This document shows positions 39,601 to 51,690 of a stretch of 64,000 nt of DNA, in pieces. The notes below the pieces were generated by a model, which worked only from the letters and a program-made list of their open reading frames with translations, did no database searches and was not told the origin of the DNA. The DNA is from Microthyrium microscopicum (taxonomy: Eukaryota), in contig MU004237.1 of assembly GCA_010405405.1 (NCBI GenBank), positions 2,181,345 to 2,245,344 on the forward strand, written 5' to 3'. Made by a program: the position numbers and the translations under genes. How positions within the stretch are numbered: the stretch's first letter is position 1; each line of letters starts with the position of its first letter.

Positions 39601-42388
39601 AAACCCACACTTTGGTTTTTCGGTACGGTACGGCACGCGTAAGTGCCACCCTGATTGGTCCATGGCCTAGGCCTCTGCTAAAGCGAACTTGTGCGGATGG
39701 GACCGGGAACTGGCAATTGTGTTTGAATGCTGGATGCTGGTTCCTTGGTTGATAAATTAGATGTAGGGGGGGCTTTGGTGTTTACCATCAGGATGTATCT
39801 AAAGACTGTAGGTACTGTATCAACAGATAGTATTTGTAGACAGGTTTCTACGATTATTTTGTAGGTTGGAGGGTAGTGGAAAGTGTACTTGTCATCATCG
39901 CTCGGATAGATGGCGACGGCTATCCGTGTTGATCTTGGACTACATTCCACCTTGTTGGGCGCCACTACTCTCTTTTCGGTAGAATGGGCGCTGAGAAATG
40001 AGGACTAAATGTCACTGTTCAGCGGAGAGTGCGGAGTAGACGGAGTGTCCGTAAGTTGCGCGGTCATTCCTTTGACTGATTTACGAGCTGAAGGGCCTGG
40101 ATTCTAGAGTCTTGAATAACCGGAGGCAAATCCTTTAACTTAGACGATGGATTTCGGCATTAGCGATGAGTCTTGTCAACTACTCAGCACAGCTATGTTC
40201 TTTGCAGACGGAGCGATAGAGGCTCGGTGGATAAAGACCCAACAGCCTGATGGATGATGGATTTAGGGTGGCGTGTCTATTCGTATCATCTGTATTCTTG
40301 ATCTGAAGCTGAACGTTTCTGGTATGGCTTGCATCAAGTTCTCCATCAAAAAGAATAAAAAGCAAGTTGTAAGCCGCTGTCATCGTTCATGTCCGAGCAT
40401 TTCATAGGCTGCCGCGGCTGTTAACCCTGCCGTAGTCGCTTTAGTCGTTTTAGTGCTCTCCAAGATTGAGAGGAGGAAGGATATGTGGCGTCTTTGGTTG
40501 ATGTTGTTAGGCTTCGCAATTTCAGTCTGTTCTTTTGGTACGATATTCGATACTTGGTAGACGTTGTATGGCCCCAGTTCACGTCGTTACTCAACCCTTT
40601 CTAAATCCTTTCCTTTCCTTTACCACAACTGCTACCCATCACCCTTTCCACTCTCTCCATCCCAGACTTCATAGGCTAAACTACTGTCCATCTTCATCTG
40701 CACGCCGGCTACCATCTGCAACTAATACTCCCCAGCTCTACCCAAAGCCTGAAGCCTGAAGCCTGCTGCATCTCTAGAGTAGACTCTGTCAACGAAACAT
40801 CCACAGTCACTCAACCACTCGCGACAACATCAATCCATCATCAATCCTATCATCAGTCACGGCATCTCCATCTGGGTCTTTACCTATTCCAGGTTCTTGA
40901 GGATCCCAACGCGCTTCTCCAGACTACGCCCACCACTCGTGACTTGACTGACGCCTTTTACTCCTGGTCAAGATCACTTAGTCAGTCTCCCTCTATTGCC
41001 CTTTTACTCCCTAGTAAGTAATCTTTCTATCGTATTTCCTTTTTTGCCTCTTCCCGCCGTGGCCGCCGCGCTATTGCAAAGCTCGCCATAACCGGTATCA
41101 TTATTACCAAAACTCAACACAGACATGGAGCAAGAACCTTTTGTCGCAACTTGACTTGCAAGACTCGCCTCCAGGAACAAGCTACGCGCGCTCATGCAGT
41201 TCAAGATTGCTCCACAAAATACTTACTCTGCATCTTTGCATTGCTGCATCTGTGCTTCTTGAATGTCGCTGCTTGAAGTTCGCACTTGTAACTTGTTGGC
41301 TTGCTCTCCCGCGCGCGCTGCCCGTTGATTCCAAGCCTGTCTGGTCTGGTCTGTCTTGGATCTCTGTACGGATTATCGCGACTCGCGACTCGCGACTCCG
41401 TCTACAACCCTCCCCATTGCTCAACTACTGTCCTGCGTCTGGGGATTGCAAAACCCCTCCTTCAAATCGCCATCATCATCATCCTTCCCCAGTCTGCTTT
41501 GCCCAGTCTCTGTTCCGCCCAGACGCCAGTCTAGCATCATCTTCTCCAATTACTTACACATATCATAATACCCTTTTGATTGCTTTCTTCATTACTATTG
41601 CCCTTTCTCATTACCCTCGACAATATCCTTCGCCCTATTCGCTCTGTCCTCAACCCCCCTTCCACTAATCGTCCCTTGACGGCCTGTCTACTGACCGGAT
41701 GCTTCCCTGCATCTAGTCTTGTCTCGTCTGGTCCTGGGTCCAATCTCTGTCCTCGACTGCCCCCGTCACTTCCGCCCCGATTCTGCCACTCTACGCTTGC
41801 TCAACCAACCGCATTTCTTCCTCTTCCCCATCTCTCCACTCACCAGCCTCAGGCTTCAGCTCCTTCAATCCACTAACCTGGCTCAAAGGCGCGCCTGTCC
41901 TTATCCCCCGACTGCATCTCACTCTCCAATCCTCAAGCAACCTCTCATCTTCCAACAAGCCGACCTGCACCAGATCCCGCTGCTTTTGCTGCGAACCTTC
42001 CGTCGTGGCCCCAAGCATCCCTTCAACCTCTGCCACCTCTAACCATCTCGTTGGCTCCCTCTCTGCATGTCCTGATTACCCCGATAGTCTCCCTATCAGG
42101 TCTTTTTATCCAAAAGTCCTGCGCCTTTCATCCAACTACCATTGCTGGTCCATTCCCTGGTAATCTCGCGTCAGGATCCTGCAGCCTACTCTTGCGCCTA
42201 TTACTCGGGCCCTCAATCACATCCTCCACCAGCTCCATCTCATCTCTTGCGACCTATCCAATCGCATGAAGCTAACTTCGCCTTTCTATTCGCAAGTTCG
42301 ACAACAAATAATCGATCTTGTCAACTAAAACTTCACTTTTCCTCCTAGGTGATTCTTAGTTTGGCTATCCTTTATCTATCGTCTTGAC

Positions 42389-44490
42389 ATGCTCATGTCG
42401 CACCCCGCGCCTCTCAATGGGGGCTTGGGTGGACCTGGCTCAACAGATGCATCCGGTACCATCAATCCCGCAGCTTTGAACAATCCAGGTAAGATTTCCA
42501 TCAGCTGTTGTTGTATGAAGCTTGAGCAGGCTTGTTATCATAGGCTCGCTTTACCGGCCTGCACCATCGTTGGAACACGGCTAACGCGCATCACCATTCA
42601 GGTCAACTAGGATCCAGTAATGCTCTATCACAGCAAAGTCCAAGAGGTATAAAACGTAGCAGGAGTAGAACTCCTGATAATTACGATCATCTTGGAGTAC
42701 AGTATGATGAAGGTATGTAGTGCGCCGGCGCTAATTTGGCCACCTGATGTCTTGTAAGTTGAAGCTGACAGATTTTAGATGACAAGCCTCGAAAGAGAGG
42801 TAGACCACCAAAGGCTGTCAAGCTATCTGGTAGTCCAGTAACACAGCCATTGCAGACTGCGACTCCTCAAAGTGCTCCTCCTGTTCAAACTCCACAATCT
42901 TCCCACCAAATACAGACCCAGGCTTCGCCTTCACTAGCATCTCCTTCTAAAACTCCAACAAAAACCCCAGTATTAAAGGCGCTTCCAACCGTTCGCGATC
43001 ACACGTCCAACGAGCTCAATGAGCAAGGAGATGAGTATCTGCCTCGAGAGATTGACGAAGCAGGTGAAAAGAAAGTCGCCCCAAATGGAGCTCCCCTTGA
43101 AGGCCGTCAGTACAAATGTCGAACATTCTACATGCCGGATCGTGGAGACAAACTGTTTATGCTTGCCACGGAATGCGCCAAGGTTCTCAACTACCGTGAT
43201 AGCTATTTACTGTTTAATAAGAACAGATCGTTGTACAAGATCATCGCAAATCAACCGGAAAAGAACGAGCTGATTCACCAGGACATTTTACCATCCTCGT
43301 ATCGTTCAAGACAAATAGCAATCGTGACAGCACGATCCATGTATCGACAATTCGGCAGCAGATTAATTGTCAACGGACGAAGAGTGCGTGATGACTATTG
43401 GGAAAGCAAAGCTCGGAAGCAAGGATTCACCGAAGATGATCCAGCGGGAGAAAAGAGACCAGGAGCAGCTAAAGCTCGGGAAGCTGCAGCTGCAGCGCAA
43501 GCAGAGAGCAACGCCGCAGCTCTTGCAGCTCTTCCTCAAGGACCTGTCATCTACAGCACCTCAAGTGGAAGTCAAATCGCTCACGGACAACTACCAATGA
43601 TTCAACCTATCCCAGAACACGAGCTGGGCGATTACAGCTCCGTGCCTCGTCCCAGACACGACATCACCGGTCCCGCATATGTGGACAGGACTCAACCAAG
43701 CAGCGCAACTGAAATCATGACCCAAGCAACTCAAGCTGCCGAATACAATAAACAACTCGCCACTCAACGAAGGGACCGTGCCAACTACCTGAACAATATC
43801 TGGCGCACACCGCATCCGCCAGCATCACAAGCCCAGCCCGGCGAAGATGAAACCTCCAACGCTCAGCGTTCCCCACAACAGTCCGTCGCTGGCCCATCAT
43901 CATCCGCCAACCAAGCAATGGGCTCGCTCAACCCGCAATCCCGCCACCCCATGATGGCCGCTCCCCCGTCTGCGTACTCGCAACAGCCCGTCCACCACAG
44001 CATGCTCGCCCAAAGCCCGAACCGCCCCGCCCAACAACAACTCCCAGGACAACATCGATCACCCACCATGCCCATGGGCCTCACTAACTATGCTCAACCA
44101 CAACAGTACTATCCCCAGCCTATGTGGACTTCTTCGCAAACGCAGCCTTCCCAACTCGTCCAAGCGCCTATGCAGTACGGCGGTCCAACAATACAATCCC
44201 CTCCACCACACATGCAGCCTAGCGCGGTTCATCCTGGCATGTCCGTAGGTGGTATGGGTGGAAATATGCCTGGCATGGCTGGTGGAATGGGTTATAATGC
44301 TGTTCCGGGTGGAATGAACCCACCAGGATACGCTGGAGTTCCGCGCCAAATGTACCAACCGCAGCAACAACAGCAGGGCCAAAACTCACCACACTACATG
44401 CAGCAACAGCAGACGAATCAGGGCTGGCCGCAAGGACAGGCGCATCCGGGTCCGCAACAGCAACACTGGAACAGCAACTATCATCAATAG
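42389..44490 (+). CDS. NPL6: RSC/SWI-SNF chromatin remodelling subunit Rsc7/Npl6/Swp82 with AT-hook and Gln/Pro/Met/Gly-rich tail
   Basis: Exons 42389-42488, 42602-42712, 42779-44490. AT-hook KRGRPPK; core LFMLATECAKVLNYRDSYLLFNKNRSL..SYRSRQIAIVTARSMYRQFGSRLIVNGRRVRDDYWE. Confidence 0.93.
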
Positions 44491-44796
44491 AATTGGGATC
44501 CTGCGATGCAAAATGCAATGGGTGAAAGTAGAGTCGAGAATATTCATGACACGATGGGCGACAACAGAGTTTATCGGGGAATGCAGCTGCAGCAATACAG
44601 GTGCGAATATACTCCTTGTTCCTACTCAGCCACGAGAAGGCCGGACGTGAAGACTCACATGAACTATCCACATGGCCGGGATTACGTCAAATATCCCCGG
44701 TTTGGTCGTGCGGCCCACGGTGACTTTTCCCAACTCGACAAGCGCGATGAGGACCTTGATCCGCGATGGGTCGTAAGAAATGCGAAAGCAGGTTGA
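44491..44796 (+). CDS. In-frame post-stop extension (or downstream ORF from ATG 44506) of RSC7/NPL6 encoding a C2H2 zinc finger
   Basis: Same frame as RSC7 (44506-42850 = 1656, divisible by 3), with no stop between TAG 44488-44490 and TGA 44794-44796. YRCEYTPCSYSATRRPDVKTHMNYPH at 44596-44673 has C-x4-C-x12-H-x4-H spacing. Confidence 0.65.
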   Translation, partial: NWDPAMQNAMGESRVENIHDTMGDNRVYRGMQLQQYRCEYTPCSYSATRRPDVKTHMNYPHGRDYVKYPRFGRAAHGDFSQLDKRDEDLDPRWVVRNAKAG

Positions 44797-45558
44797 AACT
44801 GCGATGGACCACAAGAACTGCGATTATTATTCCAACAAACATACACACACATTGTTCTGTACTCTTAACTACACTCACATTCCGGGTGCATGGCATTACT
44901 TTCGGTACTTCTTTGGTAACCTGGAACTGTTTTTCTGTTCGGCTCTATTCTCTTCTTGTTTATCCATTCAATTTGCTCATTTGAGTTCATTAGTATTCTG
45001 CATTGCTGGTTAGGCCGCTTTTTCTTTCTTGCTTGTTCTGTCACCTGTACGTCCTGTATTAGCATGGACGTCTGGAGGTGTGTAGATGATGATCAGCATA
45101 CGATGGCAGCATTACTATTATACGTTGGAGGCAACGTTGAGCGATTTTCGCATGGCATGTGGAGGCTCATATTGTTATTACTCACTCAACTTGATGTTTT
45201 TCCTTTTCGGTTTTTGTGCTAGGTTTTCTTCATGGAGGTCTCTTGCTGTATTTCGGATTAGTGTTGGTTTGGGCTGGTTGGATTGAAATTTTTGGTGCTT
45301 TTGGTGCTTGATACCAGTTGCTGCAGTTGGCTTATTTACGCATATGGACTCGGGGTCTTTGGTATCATTGAGACTATTTCACTTTCATCTGTTTCTTGAT
45401 GACTTCTAGTAATGGTATCGCACCTGGTGGCTCCTATCGCATCACGCAGCTGCCATTGCGCTTATTGAGATTCTGAAGTTATTCTAAATTCCGTTCCGTC
45501 TCTGCATTCTTGGATCTGGCGAAATCACTATGGCACACTTTAAGGTTCCCAGACAGCC

Positions 45559-45770
45559 GATGGGTACGATGGCTACAATGGCTACGATAACATTTGATGG
45601 CTACGATAAGACCTGATGGCTGCCATCACCCTCGATAAGTCAGATCATACTCGATGACTACTATATCACTCGATGGCACAGATTACATTCGATGGCCTGC
45701 ATCACACTCGATGGCCTGCATCACACTCGATGGCTCCCATAGCATTCGATGGCTCCCATAGCATCCGATA
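45559..45770. repeat. Degenerate minisatellite of about 19 nt (core CGATGGC..CAT), roughly 10 copies
   Basis: CGATGGCCTGCATCACACT occurs twice and CGATGGCTCCCATAGCAT twice, with older GATGGCTACGATAA-type copies upstream. Confidence 0.8.
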
Positions 45771-46860
45771 ACTCTATGAAGATTTTACGAGGTGATACTA
45801 CGACCGGAAGAAATATTCTGAGCGCGCTTTGATCTTTACTCCCCTCAACCTCACCATCCCCAACTCCTCCACCAACATCATCCATGCCCCATACAAGCCT
45901 GCGCCACACACCAAAATACATCAAAACACCTCCCCCACCCAGCTCAAGCCCCGCAGACCTCGGGTACACCATAGCGCGAAGACTAGGCAGACATCCCACA
46001 ATCAATTGACATCGGAGATTCAGCACGTTTGAGATATACAGCGCCTGGAGGCTGCTGACATGTCAAGATTTGTCGAGCGGTGAGGGCGGCAAGGCGGCGA
46101 GGCGGCGCAAAGAATATGGATGGTGAAACCTGGGGAAATTTGAACGGGGACGTCGGATGATGGGAGGGTTGAGCTCGGTTGGGGTAATGTTGTTATTGGG
46201 CTGTGGGTGGGTGCTATTAGAGGGGAGGGCTATATATGATGATCGGAGGGAGAGTCCGAGGGGTGGAGGATGGGGTTGGGAGGTGGAGTGGTATTGATAG
46301 GTTTGAGTAAGCGCTGGATATGATGCTAATGAGGTTGTAGAGTAATGATACGGTAAAATGGATGTAAGGTGGAAGGAGAATGTATTGTCGATATGAGATT
46401 TAATCTAGCCAATCAATGAGCTCCATCTTCAGCCTTATACCACGGCAGTTGGAATGCACTCGACCGGAGGTGGAGAAATGATGGAAGTTTACTAAGAAGA
46501 CATTATAGTAGACAAGAATCTGATAATAGGTAAACCGCTTTCGTTGCTGAGCGCGGGTAGCATCCAAACAGGAACAGAATACGATAACACACCGATACGG
46601 AGTACTGACTATAATGAACAAAAACGCCCTTTCGCTATGCATAACCACTGCCTCCTCTTTGAAAAGTATACAACTCAAGTAAAGTCACACTCTGCAATAG
46701 AGTCCCCACGAGCCTTTTCCGCAGCATCGTCTTCGAATTGGGCACCAATATCAGCAAAATCAATCTCATCACTATCCTCACTGCCCACCTCCAAAACCGT
46801 CGCCATCTCCCCACTCAAAGTCCTCGCTGTTGACGTCCTCGTTGGTCTTCTTCTCGATTC

Positions 46861-49800
46861 CTACATCGCCGAATTCTGCCGTGACGCATAGCCGCTACTA
46901 GTGCCACTTCCGCTCTCACTGACAGGTGTTGCCGGCTCCAAGCTCAACTGGCTGCGTAGGGTCATAATCCACGCATCCTGGAGGAGCTCTGCGGCACTCG
47001 CTCTCTTGACTGGATCGCGATCAAAGCACTTGTCCAAGAACGCAATGCCCAGATCCGTCAACTGATCACCTTGTGGCAGCTGCGGCGTATTGCCTTGAGC
47101 GATGTTGTACATGATCGCCCACTCATTGTCCAGTGACGCCCAAGGTCTTCGACCCGTGGCCATTTCAAGAATAACACAACCAAGTGACCATATATCTGCA
47201 GAACCTAGACGGCCTGTGTTGGCGCCACGGATGACTTCAGGCGACATGTACATAGGCGTGCCCTGCATGCTGTTCTGGCGATTGCCGTCTGCAGCAGCGC
47301 CAACGCCAGCAGCAAGAGTTTTGCCACCTTGGCGCGCAATAACCTTTGCAGCGCCGAAATCAACGAATTTGATGACGCCGTCGTGGTCGAGAAGGATATT
47401 TTCGGGCTTGATGTCACGATGCACGATGCCGCGCTCGTGTAGATAGGCGAGACCCTCGAGCATTTGAAGGGCGTAGACCATAACGACGGTCTCGTCTTCG
47501 ATGCGGCCGTGCTCGAGGAGGGCGGATAGGGAACCACCGTCGCAGTATTCCATGAAAATGTAAACCTTGTCGCGATGGGGCTCAATGCCGTAGTAGGAGA
47601 CGACGTTAGGATGGTCGAGGACTTGTAACACGGTCATTTCGTCCCGGATTTGCGAGACGATTGTAGGAATTAGCTGAGGATCGTGGAGGCGGATTTCTTT
47701 GACGGCCATAAGTTCGTTGCTTTCGAGGTTGATGGCGACGTAGACTGAACCAAAAGTACCACCACCAATAAACTGGCCTTGCTGCCAGCGAATGTGGACG
47801 TTAGAAGAAGATGAAGTGAGATAGGTCAGAGCCCTCAATGCAGGTTCATTTGAGTCTTCAAGAACTCTGCCAAGGGTAGATTTTTCGATATCGCGCTGCT
47901 TTCGAGAATCGTCCAATTGCTCAATGCAATCTATACGTTTTTGTCGCACAACTGCCGTCGATTCGGATTCATCTTGAAGATTGCTCAAGTCCATTCTGTG
48001 TTTGCCATGCATGCTCTCTTGATTATGTTTCTCAGCTTGAGCCGCCAAGGTAGATCTCGCTCCCATAATATCAAAGTGAGATACCAAAAGTGACATGCAT
48101 CCAGCAACTTTGGCCCGGAGTCTAGAATATTCTGTATCATCCATGGAAAGGATATTTTGGCCTTGAGTCATTATCATGGCGAATTCAAGAGCCGTGACGG
48201 CCCAGCGAAAGGTTTTTCGATCGGATGGATTGCAATCGTCACAAATGAAACTGATCCAGTCCAGCGCCAACTTCATAAGTTTCTTATTATTCATTGTTTT
48301 GCGGCCGCCGTCCATATAATGAATGGATCGTTGTCCAAATTCGGTGGCGAATGCAAAACAACTCTGGATCAATTCTTGACAATCCATTCCTTCTGTTTGT
48401 TTCCGAATGATCTCAACGCTGCTCATGATCGTATTGGAGAGATTGAATGCTGTGCGCTTGATCTTCTTCAACTCAAAATTGACTCGAGTCAGGTTTGCTC
48501 TCTGTTCGTTGGTGACAGACAAGTCATGACCTGTCTGTTGTTGGAAAGCATTTTTAGCAGTAGCGAGGCGCATATGCGATCCATCTGCTACTAATCTTAG
48601 GCGCGATTTGTTGAGGTCTAAATCCTCGGGAGGTGGAACCTGCATTTCCATAGTCTTTCCGGCCCAGAACAAAGTGTTCTCTGGTCTAAGAATCAAGACA
48701 TATGGGTTGGTAGGATCTTCTGGATTGTCCTCTGCATGGTAGCATGTCCCTAGAAGTGATGGGATATCTTCAGGTCTGTCTTGGAGAGCTGGAGATCCAA
48801 TCATGTATATGCCGTCGTCAAGAAGTTTGCTGTCGATCAAAAAGTGTCCAGAAAAGATTAAAGAGTTGTAAAATTCTACAAGAGAATCATTGTCGAGGTT
48901 AAGGTTATATTCAGCAGAATTCTCAAAGCGCTGAGTAAGAAGTCGAGAGAACCGGAACAGCTTTCGTTGTCGAACTCGAACAGAGTCCAGCATGGTTTTG
49001 TATCGTTTGTCTATATCAGAATGAGACAATTCGTCAGGCCTTTTCTGAAGTTCCCGTTCGAATTGTGTGTTGAGACGGACAAGAGATTTGGAGGTCAGGG
49101 AACTATGTTTTGATTAGCACAGGTTTACCTCTCGTAAATTGAACATACCTGAATTGTTCTGCTACCTCAATGTCACCACCATAAAGATAGCGACCAACTC
49201 TGGTGGAGAAATCCCACTCTTGTTCCATGATTTCAGCTTCCTTGAAAGCGTTCTTGTTGGCTGACAACTTCCAGTTGAGTAGTTTGAAGTAGAATTTGAG
49301 AGCATCAACCACGACAACATCGAAATTTTCCTCAATGCAATCTGAAGGATCCCAACCAGGTTCCGGACGAGATATTTGTATATAAGAGTCCTTGATTCGA
49401 ACCGCAAGGTCCAAGAGAATCTGAAATTGGCCAATCATTTGTTCCGTGGTCATGACAGGCTGTTGAGACCAGTCCTTGATCTTTTTGGCGTATGATAGAC
49501 GGATCCTAATTAGTTCCTTCACCAATCTCGATGGAAAGTTGATGAGAGTTTGGAGTTCCTCAATGTATGGTGGAAGATGTCGTTCATGAAAAACATCGCG
49601 ATGAACGATCAAAGTATTTTTGGCCTGTTCAATAACTTTGGTGAGGCCAATCAAGAGACCTTCTTGGCTTTGCAGGGACTTTAGACCGTCTTCCTTGAGA
49701 ATTCGTTCTATGAAAGAAGCTTCGTCCACAAGTCGACCATCTTCAGCCTCTCTTTTGCGTGGAAGTGAGAAATTGAGCTCTTCATTCCCGACCCATTTTC

Positions 49801-50977
49801 GAAGGATGGAGAGTTCTGTGTTGATGAGCTCCATAGTGTTGTGCCACGCGATAATAGCACTGTAAGCTGCAAAGAACTCTGGAGTCATGACTCGAGGATG
49901 GGCCTTTTCAAGAGCACTACTGTTTGGGTAAAGACCTTCAATCTTTTCAATCTTCTTGACCATGTCTGTGACTTGTTCGGCGGCAGTTTTACCAGCTTCA
50001 GCGACCCCTTGAATCTCAAAGCCGATAATGTTTTCGATGATAGTCTTGATCTCTGCGCGACCATTTTCAACCATTCCGCGATGTACTTGTAATGGCCTTC
50101 CACAGATTTTTGCTCGAAGCCCAAGCCATATTTCTGCTCTTAGTGTGGAATCATTGTTTTGGTCTCCGCCACCTACGAGTCTCCTCTTTTCTTGGCTGAC
50201 AACATCTCCACGAAGCACACTTGCTAGCATGGAATGCCATTCTAATCGTTCTCGGTTCTCCGGAATCTTCAACTCTTCAACTGATGGTTGCATCTCATCA
50301 TTTCCATAGTATAACAGTGTGTCCTGTTCATAAGGATCATCAGCTACGTCAGCTGTCGAAGGCGATCCCTCATCAGTGCCTGCATCCGAGCTCATGTCCA
50401 CGCTTGGTGTCCGCAAGTCCGTGTCAACATAGCCATCAGATTCTCGAGCATCCTGGCGTATCCGTTGAACATATGCTCGTTCTTGTGCGCGGTACTCAGC
50501 GTTTGGATTCGGTTTGCGAGATCGGGTAGTCGAAGAATTGCGCCCCCGACTCGTGTTGCTGTTGAGACTATATTGCGTCGGTCGACGGGCGGTGTAGGGC
50601 GCGTACGCGTTTGATGGGGTTCGGGCGGCGTTTGGTCGCTGCTGGCGAGTAGCAATGCCGTTGCTCAAACCGGGTGTCATGGGAGTTATAGGGGATAGGT
50701 CGTTTGCTCCGTTGGGCGACGCGCTGGTACTACTGCCGTGTCCGCGGGAGGTCCAACTATAGGTGGTAGATGCTGAGAGCATGGGTGGTACATCGTCAAG
50801 CGGCGTAGTGACGACGGCTGGTGTGAAGTCAAACTGGCCATCAACATCATCGTCTGAGGAGGATGCTTTATTGACTTCGGAGTCGGTGGAAGCACTAGAA
50901 TCGCCAGACTCGTTCCTCAACAAGTCTGGAGGAGCCGAAGTCGGCTGTGAATGGGAGTTTGGAAGCGCGGATGCCAT
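46861..50977 (-). CDS. SSK2: MAP kinase kinase kinase of the HOG pathway (Ssk2/SskB/OS-4)
   Basis: Intron 49148-49103 joins two ORFs. N-terminal motif ERLEWHSMLASVL; kinase motifs IGGGTFGSVY, MAVKEI, HRDIKPEN, DFG, GTPMYMSPE. Confidence 0.96.
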
Positions 50978-51690
50978 GGTGGTACTATTGAAGTGATTGC
51001 TGATGACGATGGGGCGAACGGGTCATTGCTTATCAAGGAGGTGCAGCACTGAAGCTGACAGGTAGATAAAAGAGAGTGAACAGGCAATAAAGGATTAAAG
51101 GATGAAAGAGAAGAAATAGATATTAGGTTGGAGGGAGTAGAGCCTGTCGAAGGAGGACAAGTGGAAAAGTTGGCAGTTGAAGTCCGGGCGCTGCATCAAT
51201 TTTCTAGGAAGAAGACATGCATCGCTTGCTTGCAGCGCCATGTGTTTACAAGGTACGATATGCCGGCTTATTCTAGGTCTAGGGTTGTACACGTAACCAA
51301 TTTGCCCCTATCTCGCTTGTTGATTCTCCACAAAGGCAAGAAATTAGAGTACAGTCCAATGAATTTATTCTTAAAAATCAAAATCCCTCTTGATAGCCGA
51401 ATCTTACGAGATCATGACTTTGGCGAAACATAAGCAATAAATCTCAAGAAATCCATGCCCATCCACTCATAAATTCATCTTGATATCATACAATAAACAG
51501 TAGAGTTGGGAATATACATGACCCGGAAATCCCCCATTGCCATAGCACTATACCGATGCTTACCATTATGTCCATACAATATCCACAAAGATGGGGGGTA
51601 TTCACCACATACGCCAAACAAATCATACACTAACCACACATAAACTCAAAACCTTCACTCATGCCATCCCAGACGTAGTCTCTACTTCTT

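Follow-up and report, generated by a model that had tools for sequence, protein, structure and literature searches.

Fungal mRNA editing from adenosine to inosine (A-to-I) favours a U before the edited A, as in the UAG triplet, and sites in hairpin loops, according to the available portion of its source (PMC11156358). In the portions available of that paper and of a second one, such editing is documented for Sordariomycetes, in their sexual stages, and for Pyronema (PMC11087585, PMC11156358), and the Ame1-Tad3 interaction is described as having arisen in Sordariomycetes, with Pyronema as a probable independent case (PMC11087585). The same portions make no mention of Dothideomycetes, and we found no literature report of A-to-I mRNA editing in that class, the related papers, so far as their text was accessible, being concerned with Fusarium. 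The characterised fungal stop-loss extension is, in the part of its description that is accessible, 24 amino acids (aa) long, disordered and a degron, so that it merely destabilises its protein. For fungal readthrough, the accessible part of the source describes cryptic peroxisomal signals that are reached through a short UGA context (PMC4207609). In this study, we analysed a window of 64,000 nucleotides (nt) from Microthyrium microscopicum (GenBank assembly GCA_010405405.1, contig MU004237.1, positions 2,181,345 to 2,245,344 of the forward strand), in which the gene for the chromatin remodeller subunit RSC7/NPL6 ends in a TAG at 44488-44490 and the same frame then stays open for a further 101 codons that contain a stretch resembling a C2H2 zinc finger.

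An initial annotation of this DNA had proposed that the finger may be joined to RSC7 in a conditional isoform, by editing of the UAG, readthrough, an alternative intron or reinitiation. We found no link of this kind: the stop is conserved, the open reading frame (ORF) behind it is absent in relatives and the RNA-derived sequence is unedited. Our results suggest an alternate explanation, to which we give about an even chance, namely that the ORF is an orphan finger-coding remnant or a small ORF in the transcribed 3′ region that lies in frame with RSC7 by coincidence.

The RSC7 gene and its conserved end

The plus strand of the window holds, at 42389-44490, a three-exon RSC7/NPL6 gene whose spliced coding sequence gives exactly the 640-aa NCBI protein P0003, 'hypothetical protein BT63DRAFT_308258 [Microthyrium microscopicum]'. 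Its CRC_subunit domain (Pfam PF08624, the Rsc7/Swp82 domain) scores 171.7 bits against a gathering cut-off of 25, with an E-value of 1.3e-50, and the upstream ORF had thus been rightly named RSC7. The parts of the gene, all on the plus strand, are the following.

42389-42488, plus strand: RSC7/NPL6 exon 1, from the ATG (translation match to P0003; junction seen in the RNA-derived contig X1)
42489-42601, plus strand: intron 1, 113 nt, GTAAGA...CAG (absent from the X1 contig, present in the DNA contig X2)
42602-42712, plus strand: RSC7 exon 2 (X1 contig; translation match to P0003)
42713-42778, plus strand: intron 2, 66 nt, GTATGT...TAG, with a CTGAC branch site (absent from the X1 contig)
42779-44490, plus strand: RSC7 exon 3, with the CRC_subunit domain, a Q/P-rich tail and the end HWNSNYHQ-TAG (Pfam; comparison of C-termini)
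44488-44490, plus strand: the RSC7 TAG stop, in the context CAA-TAG-AAT (seen in X1 from RNA and in X2 and X5 from DNA)

Because both introns are absent from X1, this contig is taken to be spliced RNA; its record is labelled 'RNA?', and the missing introns were the only ground on which it was accepted as such. Intron 2, like intron 1, is kept in the DNA contig X2.

To place the stop within the family we used the best 120 of 1259 significant matches to RSC7. A tryptophan lies within the last eight residues in 109 of these 120 homologues, typically as ...W-Q-x-F/Y(-Q)-stop, and the RSC7 of the window ends likewise. The three closest listed homologues finish with ...QQPWQQNF, ...QSWQQQNF and ...QQNWQQGF, and the closest listed relatives, P0004 and P0012, are 70% and 68% identical. 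Since a W-containing terminus is common to 109 of the 120, the TAG at 44488-44490 is, on this comparison, the normal C-terminal end of the RSC7 family. A nonsense allele inside a longer protein was rejected because the stop sits at this conserved C-terminus. PF08624 is the sole Pfam domain in all 120 proteins and the C2H2 pattern occurs in none of them, which agrees with the view of the initial annotation that Rsc7/Swp82 proteins are not C2H2 proteins.

The TAG was also confirmed against other sequence data. The main contigs of X1, X2 and X5 show no other letter over 42300-45500, X2 and X5 being possibly the assembly's own source, and with the same letters in all three an assembly slip was rejected.

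The frame behind the stop

Behind ..NSNYHQ-TAG the frame runs for 101 sense codons, and the coordinates and letters all proved to be as the initial annotation had given them, among them the GTAGGT at 44245 and the ATG at 44506. The features of this region are listed here.

44491-44796, plus strand: in-frame orphan ORF of 101 sense codons, closed by a TGA at 44794-44796 (translation of the RSC7 frame)
44506-44583, plus strand: four in-frame ATGs before the finger, at 44506, 44518, 44554 and 44581 (Met 6, 10, 22 and 31 of P0001)
44596-44673, plus strand: single C2H2-like finger, Y-x-C-x4-C-x12-H-x4-H (pattern statistics; sub-threshold Pfam match; family profile at 33.1 bits)
44596-44736, plus strand: stretch like the last finger of a Pezizomycotina three-finger family and the residues that follow it (tblastn and BLASTP with P0195; alignment A2)
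44800-45500, plus strand: T-rich flank of low GC, the start of a composition like that of an untranslated region (UTR) (GC and AT-skew profile)

The chance of 303 nt without an in-frame stop, given the base composition, is 0.005-0.006; the length of the ORF by itself is only mildly unusual and is weak evidence. Its codon score of 0.079 is the best of the six frames and falls inside the coding range of 0.148 +/- 0.074. RSC7's own tail has a negative codon score, and codon bias in this genome is too weak for deciding whether the ORF is coding. The compositional change comes at about 44800 and not at the RSC7 stop: GC, until there 0.50-0.54, is 0.39-0.44 beyond it, and the AT skew becomes negative. 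The 3′ flanks of related RSC7 loci show the same compositional tendency in less extreme form, and only 1-2 of 49 distinct related flanks are equally coding-like in their first 300 nt. The stretch had been described as atypical of an ordinary 3′ UTR, and this is borne out by the composition shift at about 44800 and by the rarity of its motif in shuffled sequence (below). A second copy of the DNA at 44441-44900 was not found in the window or in related loci, and inverted repeats or transposon ends were not found in 44300-47000.

For comparison with relatives we collected 80 fungal RSC7 loci from metagenome contigs by an RSC7 alignment scan, with best-segment identities of 42-65%; several are near-duplicates, and their distinct 3′ flanks number 49. 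The tblastn search of the 101 aa that the initial annotation had proposed returned nothing better than E 1.9 and found no counterpart among the 80. The RSC7 stop could be placed in 70 loci, and the post-stop frame closes within the locus in 69. These in-frame runs have a median of 14 codons, with at least 50 codons in eight loci and at least 101 in two (170 codons in L026 and 138 in L064). The two long frames have no Pfam matches and are both junk-like, and no post-stop frame of the 69 loci holds a C2H2 pattern. The expectation that the extension and its Cys and His residues are conserved behind RSC7 was not borne out in these 80 loci or in the 120 proteins, all of which are distant. A phmmer search of the 101 aa against 1.84 billion representatives brought no orthologue and nothing at 1e-10; its six matches (E 2.3e-5 to 6.6e-4) are all multi-finger proteins. 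None of the four ATG-started forms of the ORF is among about 15 billion catalogued proteins. The ORF would therefore appear to be a species-specific orphan, the relatives compared being distant ones.

The finger and its possible ancestry

Residues 36-61 of the post-stop frame (44596-44673) read YRCEYTPCSYSATRRPDVKTHMNYPH, with the spacing C-x4-C-x12-H-x4-H. A Tyr stands two before the first Cys and a Val at the usual place of Leu; the classical place of Phe, fourth after the second Cys, is held by Ala, and a Tyr comes second after the second Cys, as in zf-H2C2_5. The finger thus agrees with the usual C2H2 form Cys-x2-4-Cys-x12-His-x3-5-His, in which the first Cys is preceded by an aromatic residue and a hydrophobic one lies three before the first His; in this respect the description in the initial annotation held. 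By these features the stretch resembles a predicted C2H2 finger of the zf-H2C2_5 kind.

How often such a pattern arises by chance was estimated from shuffled sequence. The six frames of the window contain the bare pattern three times, where a dinucleotide shuffle has it 0.66 times on average. Once the aromatic residue is required, this finger is the only occurrence, against 0.035 per shuffle, and with the hydrophobic residue as well the pattern was seen in 0 of 200 shuffles. Related loci totalling 514,259 bases gave ten bare matches, all of them lacking the aromatic residue. A chance origin of the pattern has odds of a few in 100 per window, and across many windows it is not negligible. A PDB sequence search with the ORF returned only the fingers of KLF4 and GLI, with E-values of 3.4 and 4. 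A language-model atlas gave a recognition of 2452 and placed the ORF nearest to small C2H2 clusters, with scores of 0.89-0.94 and few features in common; this modelled resemblance may serve as a lead only.

Closer similarity was found to a family of 71 Pezizomycotina proteins, which was reached via the ORF's own match P0010 and includes P0195, P0154 and P0165. Its members are called 'uncharacterized C2H2 Zn-finger protein' or 'copper-binding transcription factor [Monascus purpureus]' in their sources. Full-length members have three fingers, the last of which is almost invariant, with the core SKRESNCKQHMEKAHGW. A profile of 45 finger segments of the family was run against 12,283 six-frame segments from the window and the loci; the ORF scored 33.1 bits (E 2.1e-8) and the runner-up 11.2 bits. 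With the four ligands fixed and the rest shuffled, none of 2000 sequences reached 33.1 bits, and the maximum was 15.1. In BLASTP against P0195, 18 of 47 residues are identical (43 bits), and the match extends beyond the finger into HG-x2-Y-V-K/R. From this similarity we infer that a real C2H2 ancestry of the finger is likely, at about three in four. The phmmer E-values (2e-5 to 7e-4) were rejected as proof of homology, given that the six targets match via 2-7 repeated fingers. A decayed full-length pseudogene of the family is likewise unsupported: in tblastn of 72 family proteins against the window only 44542-44736 was found, with nothing else above 30 bits, and there are no frame-shifted family remains beyond the ORF.

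Two observations on the family searches may be added. The runner-up of the profile search (E 0.15) lies at 41204-41401 on the minus strand, about 1 kb upstream of the RSC7 start, and reads ...SYKCE...SNAK..., with neither a second Cys nor the His ligands; chance probably accounts for it, and otherwise it would be a second decayed trace of the same kind of finger. Many of the catalogued family members (P0130-P0199, about 317 aa, from Logan/ENA assemblies) start a few residues before finger 3. This is what would be seen if the last exon of a gene with introns had been called as an ORF, and it would explain why most family entries lack fingers 1 and 2.

Editing, splicing and readthrough

After the missing introns, X1 is colinear with 42777-45500 with 0 differences; it has an A at 44489 and no junction. 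An A-to-G change at 44489 or a 44244/44491 junction, either of which would have joined the ORF to RSC7, is thus found in none of the X1 sequence, which comes from a single run with no recorded growth stage and is made of contigs, from which rare variants drop out. The statement that editing prefers a U 5′ of the A is borne out by the available portion of its source (PMC11156358), and a U stands at -1 of the stop's A here, as in every UAG. When 44459-44519 is folded at minimum energy, the A of the stop pairs within a weak stem and does not lie in a hairpin loop; the fold does not surpass those of shuffled sequence (z 0.34; 116 of 200 shuffles fold as well). With an A in X1, the A paired and editing documented outside this class, the editing route found no support.

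The alternative intron at 44245-44490 fared no better. There are 201 GT..AG pairs that span the stop, 60 of them frame-keeping, and the GTAGGT at 44245 is the sole near-consensus donor among them; none of the 201 combines a CTRAY branch site 5-45 nt before the acceptor with a donor of at least 4/6 consensus. The proposed intron of 246 nt is two to four times longer than both verified introns. It would delete 82 codons, including the conserved C-terminal end, and neither the deletion nor its junction is in X1. As for readthrough, the stop context CAA-UAG-A is not the known leaky one, and with the extension absent in the 80 loci and 120 proteins this route too is left without support.

Transcription and other features of the region

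The ORF region is covered by X1, which runs about 5.5 kb past 45500 into the neighbouring kinase gene; because it reaches that gene, it gives no 3′ end and no strand for the RNA over the ORF. X6 contains two short pieces of RSC7 at a depth of 2-3 and none of the ORF, and no conclusion was drawn from it.

The X1 contig is 9003 nt long, lies at about 41889-51070 of the window and joins RSC7 on the plus strand to a convergent protein-kinase gene on the minus strand (Pkinase E 2.8e-65, with a faint match to MEKK4_N). It crosses the intergenic stretch of 2.37 kb, and the RSC7 introns are covered by no X1 contig, from which it seems that all of the spacer between RSC7 and the kinase is transcribed, as very long or overlapping 3′ UTRs or as an unannotated transcript. 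The kinase that lies next to RSC7 here was sought in 64 related loci and found in none of them, and the spacer therefore cannot be aligned to relatives. The spacer also contains a tandem array at 45578-45769, with about 10 copies of a 19-nt unit and a consensus near CACTCGATGGCCTGCATCA. Further along it, at 45800-46400, the GC skew flips within 600 nt from -0.51 (C-rich) to +0.77 (G-rich), and no inverted repeat was found there.

Within RSC7 itself, the start of exon 3 has a weak match to the AT-hook (PF02178) at 42787-42822 (residues 4-15 of P0002), in KPRKRGRPPKAV, which scores 14.3 bits (E 0.038) and stays under the cut-off of 17.4. In the Q/P-rich tail, the DNA data of X5 include minor variant contigs at 43840-43975 (6 other letters) and 44254-44340 (2), with a depth of 9-11 against about 670-1000 for the main form. 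They may represent a low-complexity paralogue, a contaminant or heterogeneity.

Discussion

The gene model, the conserved stop, the absence of the ORF in relatives, the unedited and unspliced RNA contig and the resemblance of the finger to a family are established directly. The explanation to which we give an even chance would join them as follows. Translation of RSC7 would end at the ancestral TAG, and the 303 nt behind it would be a lineage-specific orphan frame with one finger of real C2H2 ancestry, most likely derived from part of a finger gene that was captured or left behind. The ORF may survive as a small unannotated ORF within the transcribed 3′ region of RSC7, and its being in frame with RSC7 would be a one-in-three coincidence and no device. 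We infer that it adds nothing to RSC7.

Several observations weigh against this explanation. Among 111 ORFs from non-coding parts, which were poorly masked, the codon score of the ORF would come only in about 20th place, and it is thus non-discriminating. The three-finger family was found through matches to the query, so its profile score carries a best-of-database bias; a single-finger match scaled to the whole library has, on a rough estimate, an E-value of about 0.1-1, and the library E-values of phmmer are inflated by the repeated fingers in the targets. A scan with a hidden Markov model of the finger, suggested by the initial annotation, did return one family, zf-H2C2_5, but the whole ORF scored 12.5 bits (E 0.11) and its 71-aa form 13.5 bits (E 0.056), both under the cut-off of 27. 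AlphaFold2, run on the single sequence without an alignment, assigned no elements to the finger, at a mean predicted local distance difference test score (pLDDT) of 36. All comparisons were with distant relatives, and absence among them leaves room for conservation within Microthyriales. A single RNA contig is compatible with a rare or stage-specific isoform, and a functional ORF would account equally well for the transcription, the 101 open codons and the four ligands that are kept. The low Pfam score is no argument against a real finger, because a genuine finger of the family is also sub-threshold (16.4 bits in one of six members, and no match in the other five).

We regard pure chance, that is a 3′ UTR with an open frame and a finger-like Cys/His pattern but no coding history, as an unlikely though serious alternative. 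Equally long junk post-stop frames without a Pfam match occur in 2 of the 69 related RSC7 loci, non-coding parts of the window hold many ORFs of at least 100 codons, and 0.035 patterns expected per window become many in very many windows. The E-value of only 0.11 in Pfam, those of 3-4 in PDB and the lack of a fold from AlphaFold fit such an origin, as does our estimate that single-finger matches are not significant at database scale. What chance explains poorly is the similarity to the family, which covers residues outside the general C2H2 consensus and continues past the last His, and the identity of the clearly fungal matches, which are the P0010 family and P0008 (named for a lichen fungus) and not the commoner animal fingers. 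The coding-like composition reaches up to exactly the end of the ORF, and recognition by the language model is above the level reached by 9 in 100 shuffled proteins. An independent small gene or a downstream ORF is a further alternative: a one-finger protein of 71-96 aa would be read from an ATG at 44506-44581, on a transcript of its own that starts inside the RSC7 tail or on the RSC7 mRNA. In its favour, the finger has four in-frame ATGs before it, RNA covers the region, and the language model places the ORF among small C2H2 proteins of 82-156 aa; the frame and the four ligands are also intact despite about 60% divergence from the nearest relatives, which argues for past selection. Nevertheless, we consider a small gene improbable: none of the four ATG forms is catalogued, there is no orthologue among the 1.84 billion representatives, the 15-90 nt from the RSC7 stop to the starts leave no room for a promoter outside RSC7, and the contig gives no transcript start. 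Reinitiation after an ORF of 641 codons is inefficient in eukaryotes, which counts against this alternative as well.

A conditional RSC7-finger isoform, produced by UAG-to-UGG editing, readthrough or an intron that removes the stop, is in our opinion very unlikely. It predicts that no stop stands between the TAG and the finger, as is the case, where the other explanations would have this in about one case in three; the region is transcribed, and UAG is the triplet preferred by fungal editing in the available portion of its source (PMC11156358). However, the extension is absent in all relatives examined, and the stop lies at the conserved C-terminus. The RNA contig is unedited and unspliced, and the A is in a stem whose fold is no better than that of shuffles. 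None of the 201 GT..AG pairs has a near-consensus donor together with a CTRAY branch site, and the context here is UAG-A, against the short UGA context of the available portion of PMC4207609.

The consequences differ greatly between these explanations. It is most improbable that Microthyrium keeps, for conditional addition, a zinc-finger module that a single base change or a single edited adenosine separates from the end of RSC7. If this were true, the finger would be joined by stop bypass to a fraction of RSC7, for example in sexual development or under stress, and would give RSC a finger that reads sequence; this would be the first fungal stop-bypass extension to add a folded nucleic-acid-binding domain and not a targeting signal or a degron. 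The addition of a domain to a remodeller by stop bypass would be without precedent in the literature surveyed. If the ORF is translated alone, it would be a very small single-finger protein, or a young gene from a captured fragment. As it stands, the locus is a curiosity, and mainly a warning not to take a domain-like motif for evidence of an isoform because it lies in frame behind a stop. One may also see in it a gene fusion that is a single point mutation short of happening.

Comparison with known systems

Among the Rsc7/Npl6/Swp82 subunits of RSC and SWI/SNF, the gene of the window is a full member, 47-70% identical to its Pezizomycotina homologues, with which its protein has in common the Q/P-rich tail and the C-terminal end. 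The 120 homologues listed are all without a zinc finger and without a second Pfam domain, and the post-stop ORF is found only here.

The likeness to programmed readthrough in fungi and animals, such as that of the cryptic peroxisomal signals, is that functional sequence would lie in frame behind a stop. The described cases, so far as the source was available, have a UGA context and short conserved extensions (PMC4207609), whereas here the stop is UAG-A and the extension of 101 aa is not conserved. With the stop-loss editing sites of fungi the locus has in common a UAG with an open frame behind it, where editing would give Trp and a C-terminal extension. The known sites are in hairpin loops and in another class; here the A is paired and there is no edited read. 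The known stop-loss extension of 24 aa is disordered, whereas an extension here would carry a folded domain.

The three-finger family of Pezizomycotina is the closest comparison for the finger itself. Its nearly invariant core SKRESNCKQHMEKAHGW is not kept in the ORF, which differs from it at nine nearly invariant positions, S47, K48, E50, S51 and N52 and further Q55, E58, K59 and W63, and tblastn of the window shows neither fingers 1 and 2 of the family nor its long C-terminal part. For these reasons the ORF is no orthologue of the family and at most a divergent side branch, as the repeated fingers of P0008 and P0010 are. Common to the ORF and the last finger of the family are the C-x4-C-x12-H-x4-H spacing, the Tyr before the first Cys, the Pro before and the Tyr after the second Cys, an Arg, a Lys, His-Met and His-Gly, and then Tyr-Val-(Arg/Lys) after the finger, and nine columns of the alignment are invariant with the ORF included.

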